From contig PPGI01000008.1 in the NCBI GenBank assembly GCA_003173855.1, forward strand, positions 10,119 to 74,118: a stretch of DNA of 64,000 bases, given 5' to 3'. Source of the stretch: Candidatus Zambryskiibacteriota bacterium (lineage in GTDB: Bacteria; Patescibacteriota; Minisyncoccia; Phycocordibacterales; DATDWN01). Each line of letters begins with the position of its first letter. Position 1 is the first letter of the stretch. The position numbers were made by a program, and so were the translations under genes. Below, one piece after another: positions 140-57,837 of this stretch. A model generated the notes under the pieces. The model ran no database searches. It had not been told where the DNA came from and saw only the letters and a list, made by a program, of their open reading frames with translations.

Positions 140-172
140 ATCGCTTGCTTGGAGGAGCAAGCGATTTTTATT
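140..172 (+). terminator. Rho-independent terminator (atcgcttgc...gcaagcgat + T-run)
   Basis: Near-perfect 9-bp stem followed by TTTTTATTTG. Confidence 0.6.
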
Positions 173-201
173 TGTATGACTCGAAATCAAAAACCATTAT
201 G

Positions 202-230
202 TTGCAATATTGGCAATGATGTAATAGTAT
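202..230 (+). promoter_or_regulatory. Sigma70-like promoter TTGCAA-N17-TAGTAT upstream of rpsL
   Basis: -35 TTGCAA (202-207), 17-nt spacer, -10 TAGTAT (225-230), 9 nt before the rpsL ATG. Confidence 0.55.
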
Positions 231-239
231 ATCGAAGCA

Positions 240-3649: not shown

Positions 3650-3818
3650 TTTCTTACTCACTGCATTTCTCGAAGAGACCGTTTCGCTCCGCCAGCGCTA
3701 CGCTCACTAGTTCTCGGCTTTCCGACTTGTCAATGAGCCAGCAAGCTGGACGTTGACAAGACCGAGCTCTCGGCCTGCGAAGTCTCTCCTCGAAACGCAG
3801 TTCGACGAAATTATTTTC
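3642..3818 (+). repeat. GC-rich palindromic MITE-like repeat, copy A (terminal inverted repeats (TIRs) overlap the fusA stop codon)
   Basis: ~95% identical to the reverse complement of 51752..51920. The outer TIRs (gaaataatttc...gaaattattttc) bracket a GC-rich core (3667..3795) containing nested palindromes (ccgagagctcgg; cttgtcaa...ttgacaag). Confidence 0.65.
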
Positions 3819-3899: not shown

Positions 3900-5132
3900 A
3901 TGAGTACTTCTGTTGCCGAACAAGGTGTCGGTAGAAAAGATAATTATTTAGATATTTTGCATAGGCAGGCTGATGGCCCAGAGTACAAAATTCCTATTAA
4001 GAAAATTGATTTTCGTACGTTACGCAAGCCGACAGATATTGATCCTTTACCTCAAGAAAAAGAAGCCATATCTCCAGAAGAGAAATCAGGAGTAATTTTT
4101 GAAAGTACAGTTTCAAGTCAAAGTTATAAAACACCAAACAAATTAATTGAATATATAAATATTTTAATAAAAGAGAATAGACCTCTCAAAGGTCTGCGGT
4201 GGGATATAGAAGAAGCAAAGTCGCTTGATGAAATAGTCAGTCGACTAACAAAAACAAATTTATTGTCGAAAGAAGAATGTGATGAAGCTATTTCATGCTG
4301 CCAATATCCCAATAAAGAAATTAAATTACATGTTGCATATACTGATCCACATCATGAAAGCACAGATCTGACTTTAGCAAGAAAAGAATACGTTGAAGCA
4401 CTCGTTCCATATTTAAAGAAACTTGAAGAGAAAAAAATTTCTTATCGAAAATTGATGCAAGGTCTCGGTGCTCAAAAAGACATGCCTTTGCCAGGTGAAC
4501 CCAAGGAGCTTGTTAATGCACGAAATGATTATTATAAGGCTAGGAATAAAGATAAAAAATCAAGTGGCCAAATTGAAAAAATCTACGATATCATGGAAGT
4601 TTCAAATCTTCGCCAAGAGATTCTCGCTCTCCAAAGTGAAAGGACGCAAATCTTTATTGATAGAGCAAATAAAAAATGGGAAAAAATTTCAAGAATTGAT
4701 AATGTAAATGTTCTCACAGCATTACTTAGCGATCTAACTTTTTTGTCATATGTTCCTCCAAAAGATGAAAATTATGTTGGTCTTCGTCCAGAAAAAATAA
4801 ATATTCAAGAAGTTATAGAAGAAAAACCTGTTGAAACCAAATCAGAAGTAGTAGAAGAAAAACAAGAGCCAAAGGCAGATCATGCTATTCAGATTTCAAA
4901 TCTGACATTTGATGACAAACCTCTTCAAGTTATTCTAAATACAGATGCCGAACCACAAACTATTCAAGTAATATTTAATGATAATGAAATTGCTTCTGGT
5001 ACGTTGACAAGGAAGGGGCCAAGTATTAAAGTTCATTCCCGTTATAAAGCAGGATTCCTATTGGCAAAGACCATGGAAGAAAAAGCTTTTGAAAACGCGA
5101 ATTCTCTTATAATCAAGAATTTCAAAATCTAA
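3900..5132 (+). CDS. Hypothetical 410-aa cytoplasmic protein inserted between fusA and tuf
   Basis: Long ORF with no transmembrane segment or known motif; coiled-coil-like segment (EILALQSERTQIFIDRANKKWEK). Confidence 0.55.
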   Translation: MSTSVAEQGVGRKDNYLDILHRQADGPEYKIPIKKIDFRTLRKPTDIDPLPQEKEAISPEEKSGVIFESTVSSQSYKTPNKLIEYINILIKENRPLKGLRWDIEEAKSLDEIVSRLTKTNLLSKEECDEAISCCQYPNKEIKLHVAYTDPHHESTDLTLARKEYVEALVPYLKKLEEKKISYRKLMQGLGAQKDMPLPGEPKELVNARNDYYKARNKDKKSSGQIEKIYDIMEVSNLRQEILALQSERTQIFIDRANKKWEKISRIDNVNVLTALLSDLTFLSYVPPKDENYVGLRPEKINIQEVIEEKPVETKSEVVEEKQEPKADHAIQISNLTFDDKPLQVILNTDAEPQTIQVIFNDNEIASGTLTRKGPSIKVHSRYKAGFLLAKTMEEKAFENANSLIIKNFKI

Positions 5133-5431: not shown

Positions 5432-5460
5432 TTGACAGATATTCGCACTTTGTCTACTAT
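5432..5460 (+). promoter_or_regulatory. Promoter TTGACA-N17-TACTAT for tuf
   Basis: Exact TTGACA (5432-5437), 17-nt spacer, TACTAT (5455-5460). Confidence 0.55.
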
Positions 5461-6794: not shown

Positions 6795-6920
6795 TAAACT
6801 TCCAAATTTAGCGATCTCCTTGTTTCGAGTTTGAAAATGTTCGTCACTTTACTACTTGTAAAGCTTCTCACATTTTCAAACTCTCAACTTCGGATCTCAT
6901 CTAAATTCTGAAAGTTTAGA
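6795..6920 (+). repeat. Conserved ~125-nt structured 3'-UTR element, copy M1 (begins TAAACTTCCAAATTT at the tuf stop codon)
   Basis: Alignable to the element after rplB (11088..11210). Central hairpin ctttac-tactt-gtaaag (6847..6863) shows compensatory changes relative to ccttac/gtaagg in the other copies. Confidence 0.55.
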
Positions 6921-6922
6921 AA

Positions 6923-6947
6923 AATACCGCACTCGCGGTATTTTTTC
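6923..6947 (+). terminator. Rho-independent terminator after tuf (taccgcactcgcggta + T6)
   Basis: Perfect hairpin followed by TTTTTT. Confidence 0.7.
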
Positions 6948-7022
6948 CCTTACAGGGACTGTACACCTTTCGCACATAACAGTGCTCAAGGTCTTGCGAA
7001 GCTTCGCTTCTCACGCCTAACA

Positions 7023-7051
7023 TTGCATTCAAAATTGAAATTTTTTATAAT
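7023..7051 (+). promoter_or_regulatory. Promoter TTGCAT-N17-TATAAT driving a GC-rich non-coding unit
   Basis: Consensus -35 and -10 with a 17-nt spacer. No ORF >=60 aa in 6795..7378. Confidence 0.5.
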
Positions 7052-7057
7052 ACTAAA

Positions 7058-7338
7058 TGGAGCAGTCGACACACAACCACGCTGAAGTAAGCGAAACGGC
7101 ACTATGAAACGAGATCTCGGCCTCCGGAAGTTTCAAGCCAGCAAAGCGTGTGTGGGAGAGCAGCGAATCTGCTCGTTACATACCTCACAGTAGGCACGCA
7201 CCCCATGTGTCGGGGACTCGTTGAGAGCCGCAGTAGTGACTTCTCCATCGTCCGCATCGGTAGAAAACCAAATCGGTTTCTCCGAGGCGGTTTTCTTTTA
7301 TACTTTACCCCGTACTGAGCTTTGCTCTAGTACTGGGG
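7058..7338 (+). ncRNA. Candidate structured non-coding RNA (~280 nt, GC ~55%) between tuf and rpsJ
   Basis: GC-rich island in an AT-rich genome, with no ORF. It has its own consensus promoter and ends in a hairpin (ccccgtact...agtactgggg, 7308..7338). Identity unknown; it did not match my recall of RNase P, SRP or 6S RNAs. Confidence 0.3.
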
Positions 7339-7367
7339 TTGAACAAAATTTAAATCTCTGTTAGTAT
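7339..7367 (+). promoter_or_regulatory. Promoter TTGAAC-N17-TAGTAT for rpsJ
   Basis: TTGAAC (7339-7344), 17-nt spacer, TAGTAT (7362-7367), 11 nt before the ATG. Confidence 0.55.
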
Positions 7368-7378
7368 CGAGCTTACAA

Positions 7379-7807
7379 ATGCCAACAGCAAAAAAGGAAC
7401 CAAAAGCAAAAAAAGCAGCAGCTCCTAAAAAAACTGCAGCAAAAACTCCTGCAAAAGCTGCTGCTCCAAAGGTTACAAAAGCTAAAGCAGCTCAAGATGT
7501 TATTTCAAAGCTACGAATCCGAGTTCGAGCTTACGAATACAAAATCTTAGATCTTTCAGTAAAACAAATTATCGATACAGCACTTCGATATGATGCAAAA
7601 GTTGAAGGCCCTATTCCACTTCCAACAGAACACAAAAAATATACTGTAAACCGATCATCATTCGTTTACAAAAATGCTAGGGAACAATTTGAAATGAGAA
7701 TTCACAAGCGATTGATTGATATTTTAAATCCTACACCAAAAATCATGGAGGCTCTTACAAATATGTCTTTGCCTAGCGGAGTTAACATCGACGTAAAAAT
7801 AATTTAA
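7379..7807 (+). CDS. rpsJ: 30S ribosomal protein S10 with an ~45-aa Lys/Ala-rich N-terminal extension
   Basis: C-terminal ~100 aa match S10 (RIRVRAYEYKILD...HKRLIDIL). The N-terminus (AKKEPKAKKAAAPKKTAAKTPAKAAAPK) is histone-H1-like. Confidence 0.9.
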   Translation: MPTAKKEPKAKKAAAPKKTAAKTPAKAAAPKVTKAKAAQDVISKLRIRVRAYEYKILDLSVKQIIDTALRYDAKVEGPIPLPTEHKKYTVNRSSFVYKNAREQFEMRIHKRLIDILNPTPKIMEALTNMSLPSGVNIDVKII

Positions 7808-8208: not shown

Positions 8209-8421
8209 GTGTTTATTGCTTCAAAAAAACCTCATCGTATTGGAGACAAAGGACATGGTGCATATCCAACTTCTGATGGAAAGATTGGAAAAGCCCCATT
8301 TGTTGTTCTTCGAGAAGCTACATTTGAGGATTGGTTGAAACAAGGTCTTGAAGCGGGCTTCTCTGAACAAGAGATGATTTCTAAAAGGTTCACTTATTTT
8401 TATGAGGTAAGTGTGGACTGA
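8209..8421 (+). CDS. Hypothetical 70-aa protein (GTG start)
   Basis: GGGAGG SD 4 nt upstream; followed by a terminator hairpin at 8423..8447. No known family. Confidence 0.3.
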   Translation: MFIASKKPHRIGDKGHGAYPTSDGKIGKAPFVVLREATFEDWLKQGLEAGFSEQEMISKRFTYFYEVSVD

Positions 8422-8422
8422 G

Positions 8423-8447
8423 CCGAGCAGAAAACGCTCGGCTTTTC
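8423..8447 (+). terminator. Hairpin terminator (gccgagc-agaaaac-gctcggc + TTTTCT)
   Basis: 7-bp perfect stem plus T-rich tail. Forms the hairpin part of the hairpin-promoter module upstream of rplC. Confidence 0.55.
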
Positions 8448-8453
8448 TAAAAC

Positions 8454-8482
8454 TTGAACAAAAAATGGTTATCTGCTAGTAT
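8454..8482 (+). promoter_or_regulatory. Promoter TTGAAC-N17-TAGTAT for rplC
   Basis: TTGAAC (8454-8459), 17-nt spacer, TAGTAT (8477-8482). Confidence 0.55.
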
Positions 8483-8487
8483 GACCG

Positions 8488-8509
8488 AATCGCATTTGCG
8501 ATTTTTTTA
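8488..8509 (+). promoter_or_regulatory. Leader hairpin plus T7 (aatcgc-att-gcgatt-TTTTTTT) in the rplC 5' UTR; attenuator-like
   Basis: Intrinsic-terminator-like structure between the promoter and start codon. Shares GCGATTTTTTTAAT with the tuf leader. Confidence 0.4.
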
Positions 8510-8588
8510 ATGGTAGCTAGCGAAGGGCAATGTTGTGACGGATCTCGTCGCATTACTGTCCGCAAACCGCTACCGAGACAAAAATAAC

Positions 8589-10250: not shown

Positions 10251-11090
10251 ATGAAAAGATACCGACCAACATCAAAATCACGCCGACAGATGACAACCAT
10301 TTCATTTGGTGATTTCATTACCACAAATGACCCAGTCAAGTCATTGACTCATGGCTATAAACGACAAATGGGCCGAAGTCATGGTGAAATAACTACTCGA
10401 CACAAAGGAGGCGGTCACAAGAGACTTTTCCGCGAAGTTGATTTTCTATACGACAAAATAAATATTCCTTACACAATCAAAACTGTTGAATACGACCCAA
10501 ACCGATCAGGTTTTATCGGACTTGCTCAATATGCTGATGGTGAAAAAAGATATGTTCTTGTTCCTCGAGGAATTAAAGTAGGGGAAACATTTTTAACTAG
10601 TGAAACTGCTGAACCAAAAACTGGAAATCGATTGCCTCTAAAAAACATAAATATTGGTACTTTTGTTTACAACGTAGAAATAAAACCAAATGGCGGAGCT
10701 AAACTTGCTCGATCTGCCGGAAACTATATTGAAGTTATTGCTAAAGATGGAGGAATGATTGATCTAAAAATGCCTTCAACTGAAGTTCGCAAAGTTCCAG
10801 AAACAGCTTGGGCATCTATCGGTGATGTTTCAAACAACGAAAACAGATTGGTAAATCTTGGTAAAGCTGGACGTTCACGATGGCTTGGAATCAGGCCTAC
10901 AGTTCGCGGTACAGCAATGAACCCTGTTGATCACAAATACGGTGGAGGAGAAGGCCGTCAGGGAAGAGGAACAAGACGTGCGATTTCTATTTATGGTAAG
11001 CCAACAGGTAAGGGTCAGAAGTCTAGAACTCCTAAGAAGTATTCGAATAAGTTTATTGTTTCTCGCCGACGCGTTGGCAAGCAACGCTAA
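10251..11090 (+). CDS. rplB: 50S ribosomal protein L2
   Basis: 279 aa; conserved L2 C-terminal region (GGGEGRQGRG...). Confidence 0.96.
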   Translation: MKRYRPTSKSRRQMTTISFGDFITTNDPVKSLTHGYKRQMGRSHGEITTRHKGGGHKRLFREVDFLYDKINIPYTIKTVEYDPNRSGFIGLAQYADGEKRYVLVPRGIKVGETFLTSETAEPKTGNRLPLKNINIGTFVYNVEIKPNGGAKLARSAGNYIEVIAKDGGMIDLKMPSTEVRKVPETAWASIGDVSNNENRLVNLGKAGRSRWLGIRPTVRGTAMNPVDHKYGGGEGRQGRGTRRAISIYGKPTGKGQKSRTPKKYSNKFIVSRRRVGKQR

Positions 11091-11210
11091 ACTTCCAAAT
11101 TTGGCGAACTCCTCGTTACCAAATTAAAAATACTCGTCACCTTACATTTGTAAGGCTCCTCGCATTTTTATTTCTCACGTCGGATTTCATCCAAATCTGA
11201 TAATTTTAGG
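11088..11210 (+). repeat. Conserved structured 3'-UTR element, copy M2 (TAAACTTCCAAATTT overlaps the rplB stop)
   Basis: Alignable to 6795..6920; contains hairpin ccttac-attt-gtaagg at 11140..11155. Confidence 0.55.
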
Positions 11211-11258
11211 GCGACCAAATCGGTCGCCTTTGACATTTAAAATTTTTTGTGATTAAAT
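11209..11258 (+). promoter_or_regulatory. Terminator/promoter module: hairpin GGGCGACC..GGTCGCC, then TTGACA-N17-TTAAAT
   Basis: Hairpin 11209..11228; TTGACA 11230..11235; -10 at 11253..11258; GAGGAG SD before the ATG at 11278. Confidence 0.55.
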
Positions 11259-11277
11259 ATACGCAGAGGAGTGAGAA

Positions 11278-11568
11278 ATGAATTCAACTTGTTACTTTTG
11301 CAAAAAACCTGGTCAATTTCGGAAAATGACCCTTTCTTCTCAATTAGGGAGCTGGGCCCCTGAACTGGGTCCCATTGATCACGTAGATGTTCACTCTCAT
11401 TGTTATTTTTGGCGGGCTAAACTTCCTGAAATAGGAATGGTAGTACCTGGTCTTCTGGTTTATGTCGGATTTTTTTTGAAATCAGAAACCATGGTAATAT
11501 ATACCATGTCCTTGGCTTTGCTTTTTGCGGGATGGGGTCTATACAACAGATTTCGTTTCAATTTCTAG
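11278..11568 (+). CDS. Hypothetical 96-aa protein (C-terminal hydrophobic segment) inserted between rplB and rpsS
   Basis: ORF with strong SD, own promoter and downstream terminator. No family recognised. Confidence 0.35.
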   Translation: MNSTCYFCKKPGQFRKMTLSSQLGSWAPELGPIDHVDVHSHCYFWRAKLPEIGMVVPGLLVYVGFFLKSETMVIYTMSLALLFAGWGLYNRFRFNF

Positions 11569-11574
11569 TGTGTA

Positions 11575-11624
11575 GGGCGGCAAAGTAGCCGCCCTTTGAC
11601 ATTTAAAAAATGAAGAATAGAGTT
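11575..11624 (+). promoter_or_regulatory. Terminator/promoter module: hairpin GGGCGGC..GCCGCCC, then TTGACA-N16-TAGAGT
   Basis: Hairpin 11575..11594; TTGACA 11596..11601; AAAGGAG SD before the ATG at 11660. Confidence 0.5.
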
Positions 11625-11659
11625 AATAATAGAGCCATTTTGACAGAAAGGAGTTTCTT

Positions 11660-12004
11660 ATGTGGGAAAGGCAAGCGTTTTTGGAAAAATTACTCAAGGC
11701 CTCGGAACAAGTAATAAAAATATCATCGAGGAGAGAGAAATTCACTTGGGCCGATATTTCTGCTAAGGCTGAAAGGAGTGTTGGCCTGCCTGTAGTTTGT
11801 CCGAATTCTCCACAAAAGTATCATCCAGTGGAGGAAGCTATCGAAACTCTTGCTCGTCATGGTCGTATAAAGCAAAAAATCAAAAGAGATCTATTCTGGG
11901 GTCCACTTATGACTTTGGAGGATCTTCAAAAGATCGAAGAAGCATGGCAACATGTTACAAGACCTTCAAAGATTCTTGAGGTTAAACTTCAGATTGCGTC
12001 CTGA
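11660..12004 (+). CDS. Hypothetical 114-aa protein inserted between rplB and rpsS
   Basis: ORF with strong SD; ends with tandem stops TGA-TAA. No family recognised. Confidence 0.4.
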   Translation: MWERQAFLEKLLKASEQVIKISSRREKFTWADISAKAERSVGLPVVCPNSPQKYHPVEEAIETLARHGRIKQKIKRDLFWGPLMTLEDLQKIEEAWQHVTRPSKILEVKLQIAS

Positions 12005-12012
12005 TAACTAAG

Positions 12013-12062
12013 GGCGGCGAATTGCGCCGCCCTTTGACATTTATAGGCAATTTGTATAGTAT
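12013..12062 (+). promoter_or_regulatory. Terminator/promoter module: hairpin GGGCGGCG..CGCCGCCC, then TTGACA-N17-TAGTAT
   Basis: Hairpin 12013..12033; TTGACA 12034..12039; TAGTAT 12057..12062. Confidence 0.55.
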
Positions 12063-12127
12063 AGGCCCTAAGTTAAGAGCCATTACCTCTAACTTGGTTT
12101 TGTTCGCGGTATTCAGTCAAGTCAGAT

Positions 12128-12153
12128 ACCACAAACAATGTGGTTTTTGTTTT
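12128..12153 (+). promoter_or_regulatory. Terminator-like hairpin in the rpsS leader (accaca-aacaa-tgtggt + TTTTTGTTTT)
   Basis: Perfect 6-bp stem plus T-run, 15 nt before the rpsS ATG. Possible attenuator. Confidence 0.35.
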
Positions 12154-12167
12154 GAACAAATTAAAAT

Positions 12168-12518
12168 ATGACACGTTCAAGCTATAAGGGCCCATATGTC
12201 GATCCTCGTCTATTGAAGAAGATCGAAGGAAAAAAGCATCTGGAAACAGGGGTTATTAAAACTTGGTCACGTGCATGTGTCATTTCTCCGGAAATGGTAG
12301 GCTTCACCTTCGGCGTCCACAATGGCAAGACCCATTTGGACGTTTTAGTTTCTGAAGACATGGTGGGCCATCGACTTGGCGAGTTTGCTCCGACAAAGAA
12401 ATTCATCAAACACGGAGGAAAGATGCAGAAAGAACTGGAACAAAAGAAGAAAGAGGGTGAAATTGCTGCTGCTCAAGCTGCAAAAACTGTAACAGAAGGA
12501 ACTGCAGCTAAAAAATAA
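12168..12518 (+). CDS. rpsS: 30S ribosomal protein S19 with a Lys/Glu/Ala-rich C-terminal extension
   Basis: The first ~90 aa match S19 (GPYVD...NGKTH). ~25-aa tail. Confidence 0.93.
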
Positions 12519-15825: not shown

Positions 15826-16245
15826 GTGATTGTATTGCTTTTGGCAGTAGCAGCATTAGTGTGGTTTCTCAGTCTTGTAACCAGAAGAAAGAGACGTCTA
15901 AAGCGCCTCAAGTTCCTAAGAAATGCCAGGTTTCAAGAGAAAATGTTTGGTGAACATTTTCTCAACATGGCACTTGAGAAACAAAAGGATATCAGGTGTT
16001 GGGTAATTTATAAGCACTATCCTTGGGGACATGGCTACAAAGTTCGTTTGGAAGATTTATGTGAACCAGACGATATACTTTCTGTAGTCGTGAACTTTTC
16101 TTTTCCAGAGAAGAAAAGAATTGCCATGGGGCTTTATTCTGACTACAGATATTTCTCAACCAGTCGAAATTCTCTCGATCGGGCAACAGAAGAGTTTGAA
16201 AGACGATTGATGCATTTGGTTTACGAAACTCAACGGGTACCTTAG
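15826..16245 (+). CDS. Hypothetical 139-aa protein (N-terminal transmembrane helix) inserted between rplE and rpsZ; GTG start
   Basis: AAGGAG SD 7 nt before the GTG; followed by the hairpin-promoter module. No family recognised. Confidence 0.45.
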   Translation: MIVLLLAVAALVWFLSLVTRRKRRLKRLKFLRNARFQEKMFGEHFLNMALEKQKDIRCWVIYKHYPWGHGYKVRLEDLCEPDDILSVVVNFSFPEKKRIAMGLYSDYRYFSTSRNSLDRATEEFERRLMHLVYETQRVP

Positions 16246-16282
16246 GTACCCGTTTGACTTAATATGGCTTCACTGCTAGTAT
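16234..16282 (+). promoter_or_regulatory. Terminator/promoter module: hairpin cgggtaccttaggtacccg, then TTGACT-N17-TAGTAT
   Basis: Hairpin 16234..16252 spans the stop codon; TTGACT 16254..16259; TAGTAT 16277..16282. Confidence 0.55.
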
Positions 16283-16288
16283 AAAGCG

Positions 16289-16310
16289 CGACTCGAAAGA
16301 GTGCTTTTTC
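16289..16310 (+). promoter_or_regulatory. Leader hairpin with GAAA tetraloop plus T5 in the rpsZ 5' UTR; attenuator-like
   Basis: gcgactc-GAAA-gagtgc followed by TTTTT, 8 nt before the ATG. Confidence 0.35.
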
Positions 16311-16317
16311 ATTAAAA

Positions 16318-28058: not shown

Positions 28059-28068
28059 TTTGTATTTG

Positions 28069-28451
28069 TGGAGATGGTGGTATCGAAACCACGTCCATAT
28101 ATAGAATTGAAACGAATCTACAGTGCTTAGGATATTTAATTGTTTAAAACACAAAGCTTAGAACAGCCAAAATACTTTGTATTCGAGTTCCTATTTTTCG
28201 GAAGTTTCCGGAACAAGGAACTTCTATAACCTCAATTTATATCAATCAACTTCTCGTATGAGATATGAGAGAAGCGACCGTCCCTTAGGCTAAAGCGTAA
28301 GAGAAAGTATAGGCTCCGTAAGGAGAAACTACACCCTTAGACAAGTTTTTTACACTTAATCTTTCCAAACCGTTTTAGGAGAATTTGGTGCTCCGCATTG
28401 CACGTATCAATGTCGAATATATGTCAAAACCTGTCATCCCCGCTCTTTGTA
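28069..28451 (-). ncRNA. ssrA: tmRNA (ssrA), ~383 nt
   Basis: 5' GGGGAUG pairs with 3' CAUCUCC, including the G3:U70 pair that marks alanine charging. tRNA-like T-arm (GUGG-UUUCGAUA-CCAC); discriminator A; CCA not encoded. Internal tag reading frame GCC UAU ACU UUC UCU UAC GCU UUA GCC UAA (AYTFSYALA*) at 28285..28314. Adjacent to smpB. Confidence 0.75.
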
Positions 28452-36756: not shown

Positions 36757-38143
36757 TTAATATTGAGAACTCCACTGTGCGGTTAGATTTCCAATACCAT
36801 TGTCGGCTACAACTTTAATTGAGATTATATCTCCTGCACTAAATGCAACATTGTGTGTTACATCTGAACAAGAACTTGCTCCGCTAGTGATTGTACACGT
36901 TACAGGCTGACTTACGCCATTTTTATCAACAGTGAACACGATATTTTTACCAGAGCCGCCGACATTAGAACTCAATCTCACAAAGAAGTTCTTTATTGTT
37001 CCTGCAACTGGCATTGCTACTTGCTCTGAGCTTTCAGTTGTTGAATTACTTCCAACAAATGTGCCCATGTATGTTGTAGCATTAGCTTGAACGCTTGCAC
37101 CACTGCCTCCACCTATAAATGAGATTCCGTTAGTTCCATTTATACCTGGGTTACCTTGTATTCCTTGGATACCCTGTATACCTTGAGAACCAGTGTCACC
37201 CTTATCTCCCTTTACACCCTGAATACCTTGGATGCCCTGTATTCCTTGATCTCCTTTATCACCCTTTGGACCAATAAGTGATGTTAACCATTGAGTTACA
37301 GTGCCACCAAAACTATTATCAACAGCAACTTGGTAAGCACTTTTTCCATCAACACCAGTGTCTCCTTTGTCTCCTTTATCACCCTTATCACCTTGAATTC
37401 CTTGTATTCCTTGATCTCCTTTGTCTCCTTTTAAGCCTTGTGGACCTTGAGAACCAGTATCACCTTTATCTCCCTTTGGACCTTGTGGACCAGTATCGCC
37501 GGTATCTCCCTTCAAACCTTGTGGGCCTGGTACACCTTGAATACCTTGTTCTCCTTTTTCACCTTGTTGACCAGTTTCTCCTTGGATTCCTTGCTCACCT
37601 TGAGCACCAGTCTCTCCTTTTTCACCCTGAACTCCTTGAATACCCTGATCTCCTTTGTCACCTTTATCTCCCTTTGGACCTTGGATTCCTTGTTGACCTT
37701 GTGGACCAGCAGGACCTATTGGACCTACATCACCTTGAGCACCTATAGGACCAGCAGCTCCCGTATCTCCTTTAGGACCTTGATCTCCGGTATCACCCTT
37801 GTCTCCTTTTTCTCCATTAGTTCCGTTTGTTCCAGGATCCCCCTTTGGACCTTGTGGACCAACTGAACCTTGTATACCTTGTGGACCTTGAGCACCAGTC
37901 TCTCCTTTAGGACCCGCAGGGCCTGTGTCACCAGTATCACCCTTTGGACCGGTTGCTCCATCAGCACCATTTTGACCAGCAGGACCGATTGGACCTTGGA
38001 TTCCTTGAATTCCTTGTGGGCCAGCAGGACCTTGAATATTTCCTACATCTTGGAAGTGAGTTAAATCAGTACATACATATAAATGTCCACCAATTAAATA
38101 TCCATCACCAATATTACATGATGAAGGTAGAAGGGAGTATCAT
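36757..38143 (-). pseudogene. Collagen-like (GxY)n protein, C-terminal segment: ~110 GxY triplets, a phage tail-fibre/BclA-like SAYQVAVDNSFGGTVTQWLTSL motif, and a C-terminal globular domain. The frame is open from 38143 with no ATG; it continues the 38094..38627 ORF after a frameshift
   Basis: In-frame GxY repeats traced by eye from 38041 to ~37100. The ORF-track entry 36757..37515 merely starts at an internal TTG. Confidence 0.6.
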
Positions 38144-38627
38144 CAAATGATCCGAGAATTTTTACACTTGTTCCAGCTTCTCCTTTTTCTCCTTGTGGAC
38201 CTTGTGGACCAGCAGGGCCTTGAGCACCTGTTGCACCAGGAGCACCATCAGCACCAGCCGGACCGGTTGAGCCTGTATCTCCTTTATCTCCTTTTGAACC
38301 TTGTATTCCTTGAGCACCTATTGAACCAGCAGGACCTGTGGCACCAGTATTACCAGTGTCACCCTTGTCTCCTTTTTCTCCTTGTGGACCGATAGGACCG
38401 ATTGGACCTTGTGGGCCGATAGGACCAGGAACTCCTTGAATTCCTTGTGGACCTTGTGGACCTGCAGGACCTTGTGGACCAACTGTTGAACCGACACTAA
38501 TAAAAGTATTTCCTGAACCAGTACACTGTGAGGCAGAACTTACAACCGTCACTTTTCCGTTCGGACTTGAAACACAAAGATTAATTGTTGTAGCAGATGC
38601 ATTTGCAAGTGGAATTAATGCAAACAA
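38094..38627 (-). CDS. Collagen-like protein, N-terminal segment (signal peptide + N-domain + ~40 GxY triplets), ending prematurely after a frame change
   Basis: [12 protein letters not shown] signal-like; [16 protein letters not shown]... repeats. The ORF ends in the non-collagen tail ...[24 protein letters not shown], while the GxY frame resumes downstream in another frame. Confidence 0.6.
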
Positions 38628-51751: not shown

Positions 51752-51920
51752 AAATTTCTCTGGTTAGTATGTTTTGAAAAGAGACTTCGCAGGCCGAGAG
51801 CTCGGTCTTGTCAACGTCCAGCTTCGCTGGTTCATTGACAAGTCGGAGAGCCGAGAACTAGTGAGCGTAGCGCTGGCGGAGCGAAACGGTCTCTTGAAAA
51901 ATATACTAACCAGAGAAATT
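51752..51920 (-). repeat. GC-rich palindromic MITE-like repeat, copy B (the right TIR overlaps the stop codon of the SDR gene)
   Basis: Reverse complement ~95% identical to 3642..3818. ~19-bp TIRs (aaatttctctggttagtat / atactaaccagagaaatt). GC-rich core 51781..51895. Confidence 0.65.
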
Positions 51921-57693: not shown

Positions 57694-57799
57694 AACTTCG
57701 AAAACTTGCGCATTTCGTTGTTGCAGTTCAATTTTGCTGTTCACCTTACTACAAGTAAGGCTCACTCACAAAATTTCCTGCGCCTAGAACTGCATCCAG
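57694..57799 (+). repeat. Structured intergenic element, copy M4: central hairpin ccttac-tacaa-gtaagg inside nested long-range helices
   Basis: Outer perfect 12-bp inverted repeat acttcgaaaact / agttttcgaagt (57695-57706 with 57787-57798). Inner tgcagttc/gaactgca and gcgca/tgcgc pairings. Central hairpin 57744..57760 matches the M1-M3 family. Confidence 0.55.
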
Positions 57800-57837
57800 T
57801 TTTCGAAGTTCGAGATTGTTATGTTTGACGGAATTTT

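Follow-up and report, generated by a model that had tools for sequence, protein, structure and literature searches.

A stretch of 64,000 nucleotides from Candidatus Zambryskiibacteriota bacterium (contig PPGI01000008.1, positions 10,119 to 74,118 of the forward strand; hereafter the window) contains three similar modules between the ribosomal protein genes rplB and rpsS, in each of which a GC-rich hairpin is followed by the -35 and -10 boxes of a predicted promoter. The modules are probably compact transcription boundaries, a reading that includes local copying of a core which all three share. The hairpin would be the Rho-independent terminator of the upstream unit, and its short T-run (TTT) would double as the start of the -35 box TTGACA in a sigma-70-type promoter of the downstream unit. 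The common part, about 33 nucleotides (nt) long, would have been homogenised or copied in this lineage, either through gene conversion over short tracts or through a local duplication, and probably was not carried in with foreign cassettes. The modules would split the rplB-rpsS junction into four transcription units: one that ends with rplB, a palindromic element (PE) and hairpin 1; two small open reading frames (ORFs), ORF-A and ORF-B, as one unit each; and a unit from rpsS to rplE, whose promoter is conserved in the clade and followed by an attenuator-like leader. A terminator set directly on a promoter would keep read-through polymerases from occluding it, a presumed insulating role. Small genes would have been gained, lost and replaced at the junction between highly conserved flanks.

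The pattern GGGCG-N5-14-CGCC-N0-1-TTTGACATTTAWA has exactly three matches in the window (11209, 11575 and 12012, + strand) and none in 100 dinucleotide-preserving shuffles. The shared design can be written as a GC hairpin plus CC(C)TTTGACATTTA(A/T)A, for which 0 occurrences are expected by chance. The hairpins are 19-21 nt long, with stems of 7-10 bp containing 6-8 GC pairs, and their folds have z-scores of -4.1 to -5.4. As expected of intrinsic terminators, hairpins 2 and 3 lie 6-7 nt past stop codons, and hairpin 1 comes after the palindromic element that follows rplB. Stem positions 6-9 vary with compensating changes across 21 hairpins. The T-run overlaps the start of the -35 hexamer in the modules. 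The promoter scan did not list the module 1 promoter, the -10 box of which has no A at position 2. A search of positions 1-22000 against Rfam 15 (E up to 1) gave nothing credible; the sole match over a module was STnc390, on the opposite strand and with 27 bits against a gathering score of 50.

An earlier note on this DNA had described three near-identical modules within 850 bp, each with a -10 box (TTAAAT, TAGAGT or TAGTAT) 16-17 nt past TTGACA. All three modules and this geometry are confirmed in the sequence, but the likeness is confined to about 33-36 nt, namely the hairpin, the -35 box and a following TTTA (36-nt repeat, 78% identical). The hairpin loops, spacers and -10 boxes are unlike. 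Duplication of a whole terminator-promoter unit with each ORFan, which the note also proposed, does not hold, as only the hairpin and the -35 box are common to the modules.

Features of the rplB-rpsS junction and other hairpin/promoter sites of the window
Feature	Coordinates	Strand	Description
rplB (ribosomal protein L2)	10251..11090	+	last gene of the upstream rplC-rplB unit
palindromic element (PE), ~120 nt	11088..11208	+	begins at rplB stop codon, abuts module 1
module 1	11209-11258	+	GC hairpin, then -35/-10 boxes
module 1 hairpin	11209..11228	+	GGGCGACC-AAATC-GGTCGCC; -15.5 kcal/mol, z = -4.7
module 1 promoter (predicted, ORF-A)	11230..11258	+	TTGACA 11230-11235, 17 nt spacer, TG-extended TTAAAT 11253-11258
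ORF-A, 96 amino acids	11278..11568	+	putative gene; CxxC...HxHC, then two hydrophobic segments; GGAG ribosome-binding site, own promoter and hairpin
module 2	11575-11624	+	GC hairpin, then -35/-10 boxes
module 2 hairpin	11575..11594	+	GGGCGGC-AAAGTA-GCCGCCC; -20.6 kcal/mol, z = -5.4; starts 6 nt past ORF-A stop codon
module 2 promoter (predicted, ORF-B)	11596..11623	+	TTGACA 11596-11601, 16 nt spacer, TAGAGT 11618-11623; scan score 10/12
ORF-B, 114 amino acids	11660..12004	+	all-alpha model; fast-evolving small protein family upstream of rpsS
module 3	12012-12062	+	GC hairpin, then -35/-10 boxes
module 3 hairpin	12012..12032	+	GGGCGGCG-AATTG-CGCCGCCC; -20.1 kcal/mol; starts 7 nt past ORF-B stop codon
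module 3 promoter (predicted, rpsS)	12034..12062	+	TTGACA 12034-12039, 17 nt spacer, TG-extended TAGTAT 12057-12062; scan score 10/12
rpsS leader (predicted)	12069..12167	+	terminator-like hairpin 12128-12144 (called by terminator scan), then TTTTTGTTTTG
rpsS (ribosomal protein S19)	12168..12518	+	first gene of the rpsS-rplE unit; Pfam Ribosomal_S19, E = 1.5e-31
site upstream of rpsL (from the earlier note)	140-231		canonical terminator ~37 nt upstream of promoter
site before tuf (from the earlier note)	5432-5460		promoter; no hairpin upstream
site before rpsJ	7308-7367		hairpin abuts TTGAAC; no T-run
site before rplC	8421-8482		hairpin, 11 nt, TTGAAC
site before rpsZ	16233-16282		same abutting design: hairpin ...GGTACCCG, then TTTGACT

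The junction was compared across 80 related loci, cited by number (L001 and so on) where they have to be told apart. The closest relatives of the window RplB, with up to 84-85% identity, come from metagenome-assembled genomes labelled Minisyncoccia, Parcubacteria, Paceibacterota or Zambryskibacteria, which places the window in an uncultured Patescibacteria (CPR) genome, Zambryskibacteria-like within Paceibacterota. Exact-sequence look-ups with ORF-B, RpsS, RplN and RpsL matched no record. Hairpins of the GGGCG type have a mean identity of 0.71 within a genome and 0.59 between genomes, and pairs of window modules have 0.68-0.72 (hairpin plus 24 nt). Since hairpins are more alike within genomes (the window, L022, L073 and L002) than between them, copying or gene conversion is favoured over independent origin. 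The hairpin that precedes ORF-B in L022 matches the one after the gene, the terminator of L022's own ORF-B, as a 96% copy that includes the loop. The sister locus L019 (rplB DNA 97.8% identical to L022) has an unrelated hairpin in this upstream position, and homology between the two ends exactly at the border of hairpin and promoter. In L073 three copies of a hairpin and its tail are 77-98% identical over 48 nt; two of them extend as a 100-nt repeat with 90% identity, and the promoter-bearing part is present four times. The hairpin pair of L002 has a loop motif in common with the single terminator of L020.

Three ordinary terminator-promoter junctions could also have arisen independently, and be alike because all have GC-rich stems, a -35 box at consensus and a small genome that presses for compactness, with nothing copied. 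This explanation is unlikely. In its favour, unrelated hairpins abut a -35 box at 16233-16259 and 7308-7345 of the window and in L004, L044 and L056, and GGGCG...CGCCC stems are common in the clade. The unlike loops, spacers and -10 boxes of the modules fit it as well, and so does the identity of the window pairs, which overlaps the upper between-genome range. However, the distance from hairpin to promoter in relatives runs from -3 to 57 nt and is zero or less in only 2 of 82 pairs, so independent origin is unlikely for three successive abutting junctions that all have the same TTTA behind the -35 box. The -35 boxes before ORF-B homologues are TTGACG or TTGATT in the relatives that share the -10 context of module 2 (see below) and TTGACT in L002, L004 and L006, whereas the window has TTGACATTTA at all three modules. 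Together with the clear copying of the same hairpin type within L022, L073 and L002, this suggests that the shared core of hairpin and -35 box was probably copied or homogenised locally in the lineage of the window.

Several points weigh against the reading of the modules as copied transcription boundaries. In intrinsic terminators the stem is directly followed by a tract of about 7-9 nt rich in U. The T-run of the modules is short (TTTGACAT), and their hairpins were not called by the terminator scan, which requires 5 or more T in 8; the tail TTTGACATTT falls below this. Termination at these hairpins may be weak or absent, or, given the short T-run and the missing calls, it may be partial. The compensating changes were counted in a set picked by hairpin pattern, which makes this evidence partly circular. 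The -35 box of the modules, TTGACA, equals the consensus, GC stems span a small sequence space, and the 68-72% identity of the window pairs falls close to the upper end of what is seen between genomes. ORF-A may not be a gene at all. The promoter and terminator rules used may not be those of Patescibacteria, the organism being uncultured. In favour of the reading, other strong hairpins of the window likewise have tails of TTT plus mixed letters, and the modules fit this terminator style of the host genome.

Counterparts of the module promoters were found in relatives: the rpsS promoter across the relatives, the ORF-B -10 box TAGAGT in L019, L022 and L086, and the module 1 promoter in L005. Upstream of rpsS the close relatives keep the motif TTGACATTAT..TTTTGTATAGTATA, and the window carries this promoter too; almost every other relative likewise shows a promoter in this position. 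The leader of the close relatives, like that of the window, contains ACCAC..GTGG and then TTTTTGTTTTG; distant relatives have GCGT..ACGC and then TTTTTGTTTT. No Rfam family matches the leader. A GGGCG...CGCCC hairpin comes after 9 of the 10 ORF-B family genes examined, and likewise in L084, L085 and L086; where rpsS is the next gene (7 of them) its promoter stands 0-25 nt past the hairpin. As family genes in relatives show this same hairpin and then the rpsS promoter, module 3 appears to be the orthologue of a clade-wide unit made of the ORF-B terminator and the rpsS promoter and leader, with a spacer of zero here versus the usual 8-25 nt. The ORF-B terminator and the rpsS promoter are, judged by sequence, ancestral and not brought by insertion. 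The -10 context of module 2, G-N2-TAGAGTT, recurs in front of the ORF-B homologues of L019, L022 and L086; in L073 it stands in front of the small ORF that precedes the homologue. The module 2 promoter therefore appears to be old, and its hairpin and -35 part appear to have become identical to those of the neighbouring modules.

ORF-B, described earlier as a newly inserted ORFan, turned out to be a remote member of a family that occupies the place directly before rpsS in at least 12 other genomes and was never located elsewhere. A single-sequence homology search with ORF-B retrieved only itself. A profile built from 9 syntenic ORFs (L002, L003, L004, L006, L019, L020, L022, L066 and L073) matches it over its full length with 16.5 bits (E = 9.5e-5); the best of 3060 shuffled sequences reached 9.4 bits. 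A profile search of 5.8 billion proteins detected only 7 members of the family, and three members not previously in the set all lie directly upstream of rpsS. An extra match from an exhaustive phmmer search, P0002, was rejected as spurious, being a tandem-repeat translation with a score inflated by six repeats. The AlphaFold2 model of ORF-B (predicted local distance difference test score 74) gave no fold match in the PDB with E below 1. ORF-B appears to be an old, rapidly diverging resident rather than a fresh ORFan. Two independent metagenome contigs, L084 and L085, end 32-52 nt upstream of the ORF-B homologue; these ends may match assemblies that break at repeated or strain-variable junction modules.

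On the upstream side, the window, L002 and L005 have in common the element of about 120 nt after rplB and then a TTTGAC promoter of a small Cys-rich ORF. The L005 counterpart of the module 1 promoter, TTTGACT...ATTAAAT, is in the same position after PE, and the site of hairpin 1 between them is occupied by a 16-nt stretch that forms no hairpin. ORF-A has no match in the collection of 5.8 billion proteins (single-sequence search), and codon usage, for which ORF-A was scored, fails here to tell genuine small ORFs from spurious ones. Eight non-ribosomal ORFs break up the str-S10-spc cluster, and none of them has a meaningful Pfam, PHROGs or PADLOC match. An equal spacing of 366 nt in the window and in L073 was set aside as coincidence, the first ORFs being without similarity.

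The PE copy at 11088-11208 is 81% identical to one at 6795-6920, right after the tuf stop codon, and a further window copy lies at 57694-57811. Copies were found with nhmmer in 12 related loci, among them L001, L002, L005, L006, L007, L014, L015, L016, L019, L020 and L022. The tuf copy folds as one long hairpin (-37.7 kcal/mol, z = -7.6). RNAalifold gave no structure on the PE alignment, and pairs were counted on an explicit structure instead. Covariation supports the long hairpin: 77% of cells pair versus 29-51% with partners slid, and both partners change in 22 pairs. PE has no match in Rfam and could be a repeat like a miniature inverted-repeat transposable element or a structured 3' untranslated region or terminator RNA.

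The rplB-rpsS junction is the main variable site of the cluster. Its gap was available from 55 loci (in the other 25 rpsS was not found within the available sequence) and exceeds 150 nt in 46 of them, with a range of 52-5726 nt and a median of 985. Gaps above 150 nt were also found at rpsJ-rplC (23 of 70 loci), tuf-rpsJ (14 of 68) and rplE-rpsZ (10 of 23); all other junctions show them in 0-7 loci each and have a median gap of 56 nt or less. The four variable junctions are those with insertions and hairpin/promoter pairs in the window. Each has a promoter kept among relatives (conserved promoters precede rplC, rpsZ and rpsJ as well as rpsS in the clade), followed by a leader with a hairpin and a T-run. 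Because of these conserved internal promoters, the classical S10 operon appears to be cut into several promoter-bearing units in this clade. In the window, attenuator-like leaders with a hairpin and a T-run also follow the rplC promoter (~8484-8534) and the rpsZ promoter (~16283-16317). The conserved post-promoter leaders are possibly undescribed ribosomal-protein leaders.

Where rplB is about 90% identical between genomes, the rplB-rpsS junction holds no small gene, one or two, and more distant relatives have rplJ-rplL and two other conserved genes there. In L016 (9203-9524) the junction includes a CRISPR-like (clustered regularly interspaced short palindromic repeats) array with five copies of GTAGCAGGACTCTCCTCGAGAGAAACAGGGGTATGCTAC at a period of 70-71 nt. 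In L070 (7421-8001) it includes adjacent ORFs of 84 and 112 amino acids, by eye a putative AbrB/MazE-type antitoxin and PemK/MazF-type toxin. As insertions between co-transcribed genes are harmful, the limitation of variable content to operon boundaries is expected from purifying selection alone and is no proof of a targeted cassette mechanism.

Replacement of the small gene itself is best visible in L019 and L022. The rates of synonymous (dS) and nonsynonymous (dN) substitution between them are 0.095 and 0.002 for rplB and 0.068 and 0 for rpsS, and they are 1.35 and 0.435 for ORF-B (7122-7430 of L019, 7309-7611 of L022; 92 aligned codons). Only a few positions distinguish the two over the stretch made up of the hairpin, the rpsS promoter and the leader. 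Since fast protein evolution cannot saturate synonymous sites between near-identical flanks, these values indicate that the ORF-B allele of this pair was replaced by a divergent one through recombination. The rplB-rpsS junction thus looks like a real hotspot of recombination and gene turnover.

Such turnover raises a rather improbable explanation, in which the hairpins are recombination or insertion sites, or small mobile palindromes, that swap units of hairpin, promoter and ORF by a logic like that of integrons or repetitive extragenic palindromic (REP) elements. The saturated dS of ORF-B and the end of L019/L022 homology exactly at hairpin borders speak for it, and the presence or absence of small genes next to rplB genes of about 90% identity would match gain or loss of whole hairpin-bounded units. 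In L022 the same 30-nt GC-rich palindrome (CGCCTCATCGGCG-N4-CGCCGATGAGGCG) is inserted in the rplC and rpsS leaders (4100-4129 and 7778-7807), each time directly behind the T-run of the leader; the sister L019 lacks it. A mini-palindrome thus appears to have been copied recently to two analogous sites, so that short GC hairpins can reach new sites in the clade. However, ORF-B family genes occur only upstream of rpsS, neither the core sequences nor the length of attC are seen, and the ORFs beside the modules include no identified recombinase gene. None of the 80 related loci contains the exact module, and a wider motif search, an idea of the earlier note, gave 3 matches in metagenome contigs, no more than chance: one in a glycosidase-like ORF and one in a contig of 58% GC (both chance matches), and one in an unplaced AT-rich contig of 1.7 kb. 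For allele replacement, homologous recombination within the conserved flanks, rplB and rpsS, would suffice.

Integron arrays are alike in that genes are parted by imperfect palindromes with conserved outer and variable central parts, and in that the content varies between relatives. The attC sites are 57-141 nt long, with RYYYAAC/GTTRRRY cores, and go with an integron integrase or attI. The module hairpins, unlike them, are 19-21 nt, are flanked by TTTTAG and TTTGACA and have no GTTRRRY; each gene has a promoter of its own and the position of ORF-B is fixed. No attI was seen, and no integrase was found among the ORFs adjoining the modules (no Pfam matches), the rest of the window not having been screened for recombinases. 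With REP elements and bacterial interspersed mosaic elements (BIMEs) the modules share short, GC-rich extragenic palindromes at gene 3' ends that are alike within a genome, and the L022 palindrome at two sites is a further likeness. REP and BIME occur in many dispersed, often clustered copies per genome with a cognate REP-associated tyrosine transposase (RAYT), whereas here there are three copies in 64 kb, all at one junction and tied to the terminator of one gene family across species. No RAYT gene was identified, although no search was aimed at one and the copy count covers the 64-kb window. The earlier proposal of cassette-like insertion survives in so far as the junction is a turnover hotspot, the small genes are self-promoted units and hairpins have been copied within several genomes. 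It fails in that ORF-B, its terminator and the rpsS promoter are ancestral, and in that no recombinase next to the modules and no att-like or attC-like features were seen.

There is a slim chance that the GC hairpins of the clade are more than passive terminators, being copied to new sites, like the 30-nt palindrome of L022, and serving as joints for the insertion, deletion and exchange of self-promoted small-gene units. If true, this would amount to an integron-like cassette system without a known integrase, with terminator hairpins as recombination sites, inside a ribosomal-protein cluster. That the palindromes are DNA operators through which one dimeric regulator, centred about 46 nt upstream of the start, co-controls ORF-A, ORF-B and the rpsS operon is very improbable: perfect inverted repeats with common outer half-sites (GGGCG/CGCCC) do lie directly upstream of the three -35 boxes, but loops of 3-16 nt and compensating changes in the inner stem point to single-strand pairing rather than protein half-sites, orthologous sites lie anywhere from 0 to 25 nt from the -35 box, and the hairpins always come after a stop codon and are followed by T. 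The operator and attC readings were both rejected on spacing and sequence grounds.

The same architecture had been reported in the earlier note at five other sites of the window. The site before rpsZ abuts in the same way, and the rpsJ, rplC and rpsL sites are real hairpin/promoter pairs. Their sequences, however, are unrelated, none of the five having sequence in common with the three modules; the two elements of the rpsL site are about 37 nt apart, and the tuf site has no upstream hairpin. The gap between tuf and rpsJ is 584 nt long and without an ORF, with a promoter-like site near 7045. Its part at 6920-7300 ends in a hairpin and a T-run (CCGAGGCGGTTTTCTTTT), the 3' part of which recurs in L001 and L005. 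This part has no Rfam or ARAGORN match and a fold z-score of only -2.0; the gap may hold a small RNA gene.

Three features elsewhere in the window were recorded. A repeat of about 125 nt, 94-97% identical and inverted, is found at 3673-3796, just after fusA, and 48 kb away at 51771-51895. On the - strand, 37140-38470 has long 9-nt-periodic repeats and reads as a collagen-like Gly-X-Y repeat protein. A transfer-messenger RNA gene with the tag peptide VKNLSKGVVSPYGAYTFSYALA is predicted by ARAGORN at 28068-28441 (- strand).

The elements of the modules, as terminators and promoters, are ordinary in kind; what is unusual is their overlap, repetition and location. Like Rho-independent terminators and sigma-70 promoters at operon boundaries, the modules have a stem-loop past a stop codon, T residues, TTGACA and, after 16-17 nt, a -10 box like TAnnnT with a TG extension, and they would likewise keep adjacent transcription units apart. 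Unlike ordinary boundaries, they have a T-run of just three T that is shared with the -35 hexamer, with zero spacer; moreover, 850 nt hold three of them, all sharing a 33-nt core, in a region that forms one S10 operon in model bacteria. The literature searched gave no account of such an arrangement in Patescibacteria. In Gammaproteobacteria and Bacilli, 'invasion-separation' insertions break concatenated ribosomal operons, mostly between classical operons (PMC8046335, PMC6735719), and single genes are exchanged within the cluster (PMC8046335). The junction resembles that pattern in having few accessory genes at boundaries of the str-S10-spc cluster and single-gene exchange that spares the neighbours. 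It differs in that the main site is rplB-rpsS, inside the classical S10 operon, in that this site varies in most members of a whole clade (the 46 of 55 loci with gaps over 150 nt), and in that the content consists of lineage-restricted small ORFs.

The adjacency of rplB and rpsS is among the most conserved of prokaryotic gene pairs, and the genomes of Patescibacteria count as streamlined. The junction would nonetheless be, in this clade, an operon boundary with its own promoter and a site of fast turnover for lineage-restricted small proteins, which in some relatives houses rplJ-rplL, a toxin-antitoxin-like pair or a CRISPR-like array. Repeats at the junction may help explain why assemblies break there. 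The ORF-B family, always adjoining rpsS and apparently replaced by recombination, may serve a function that varies between strains. To our knowledge there are almost no transcription data for this phylum, and the modules offer testable candidate promoter and terminator sequences for Patescibacteria.

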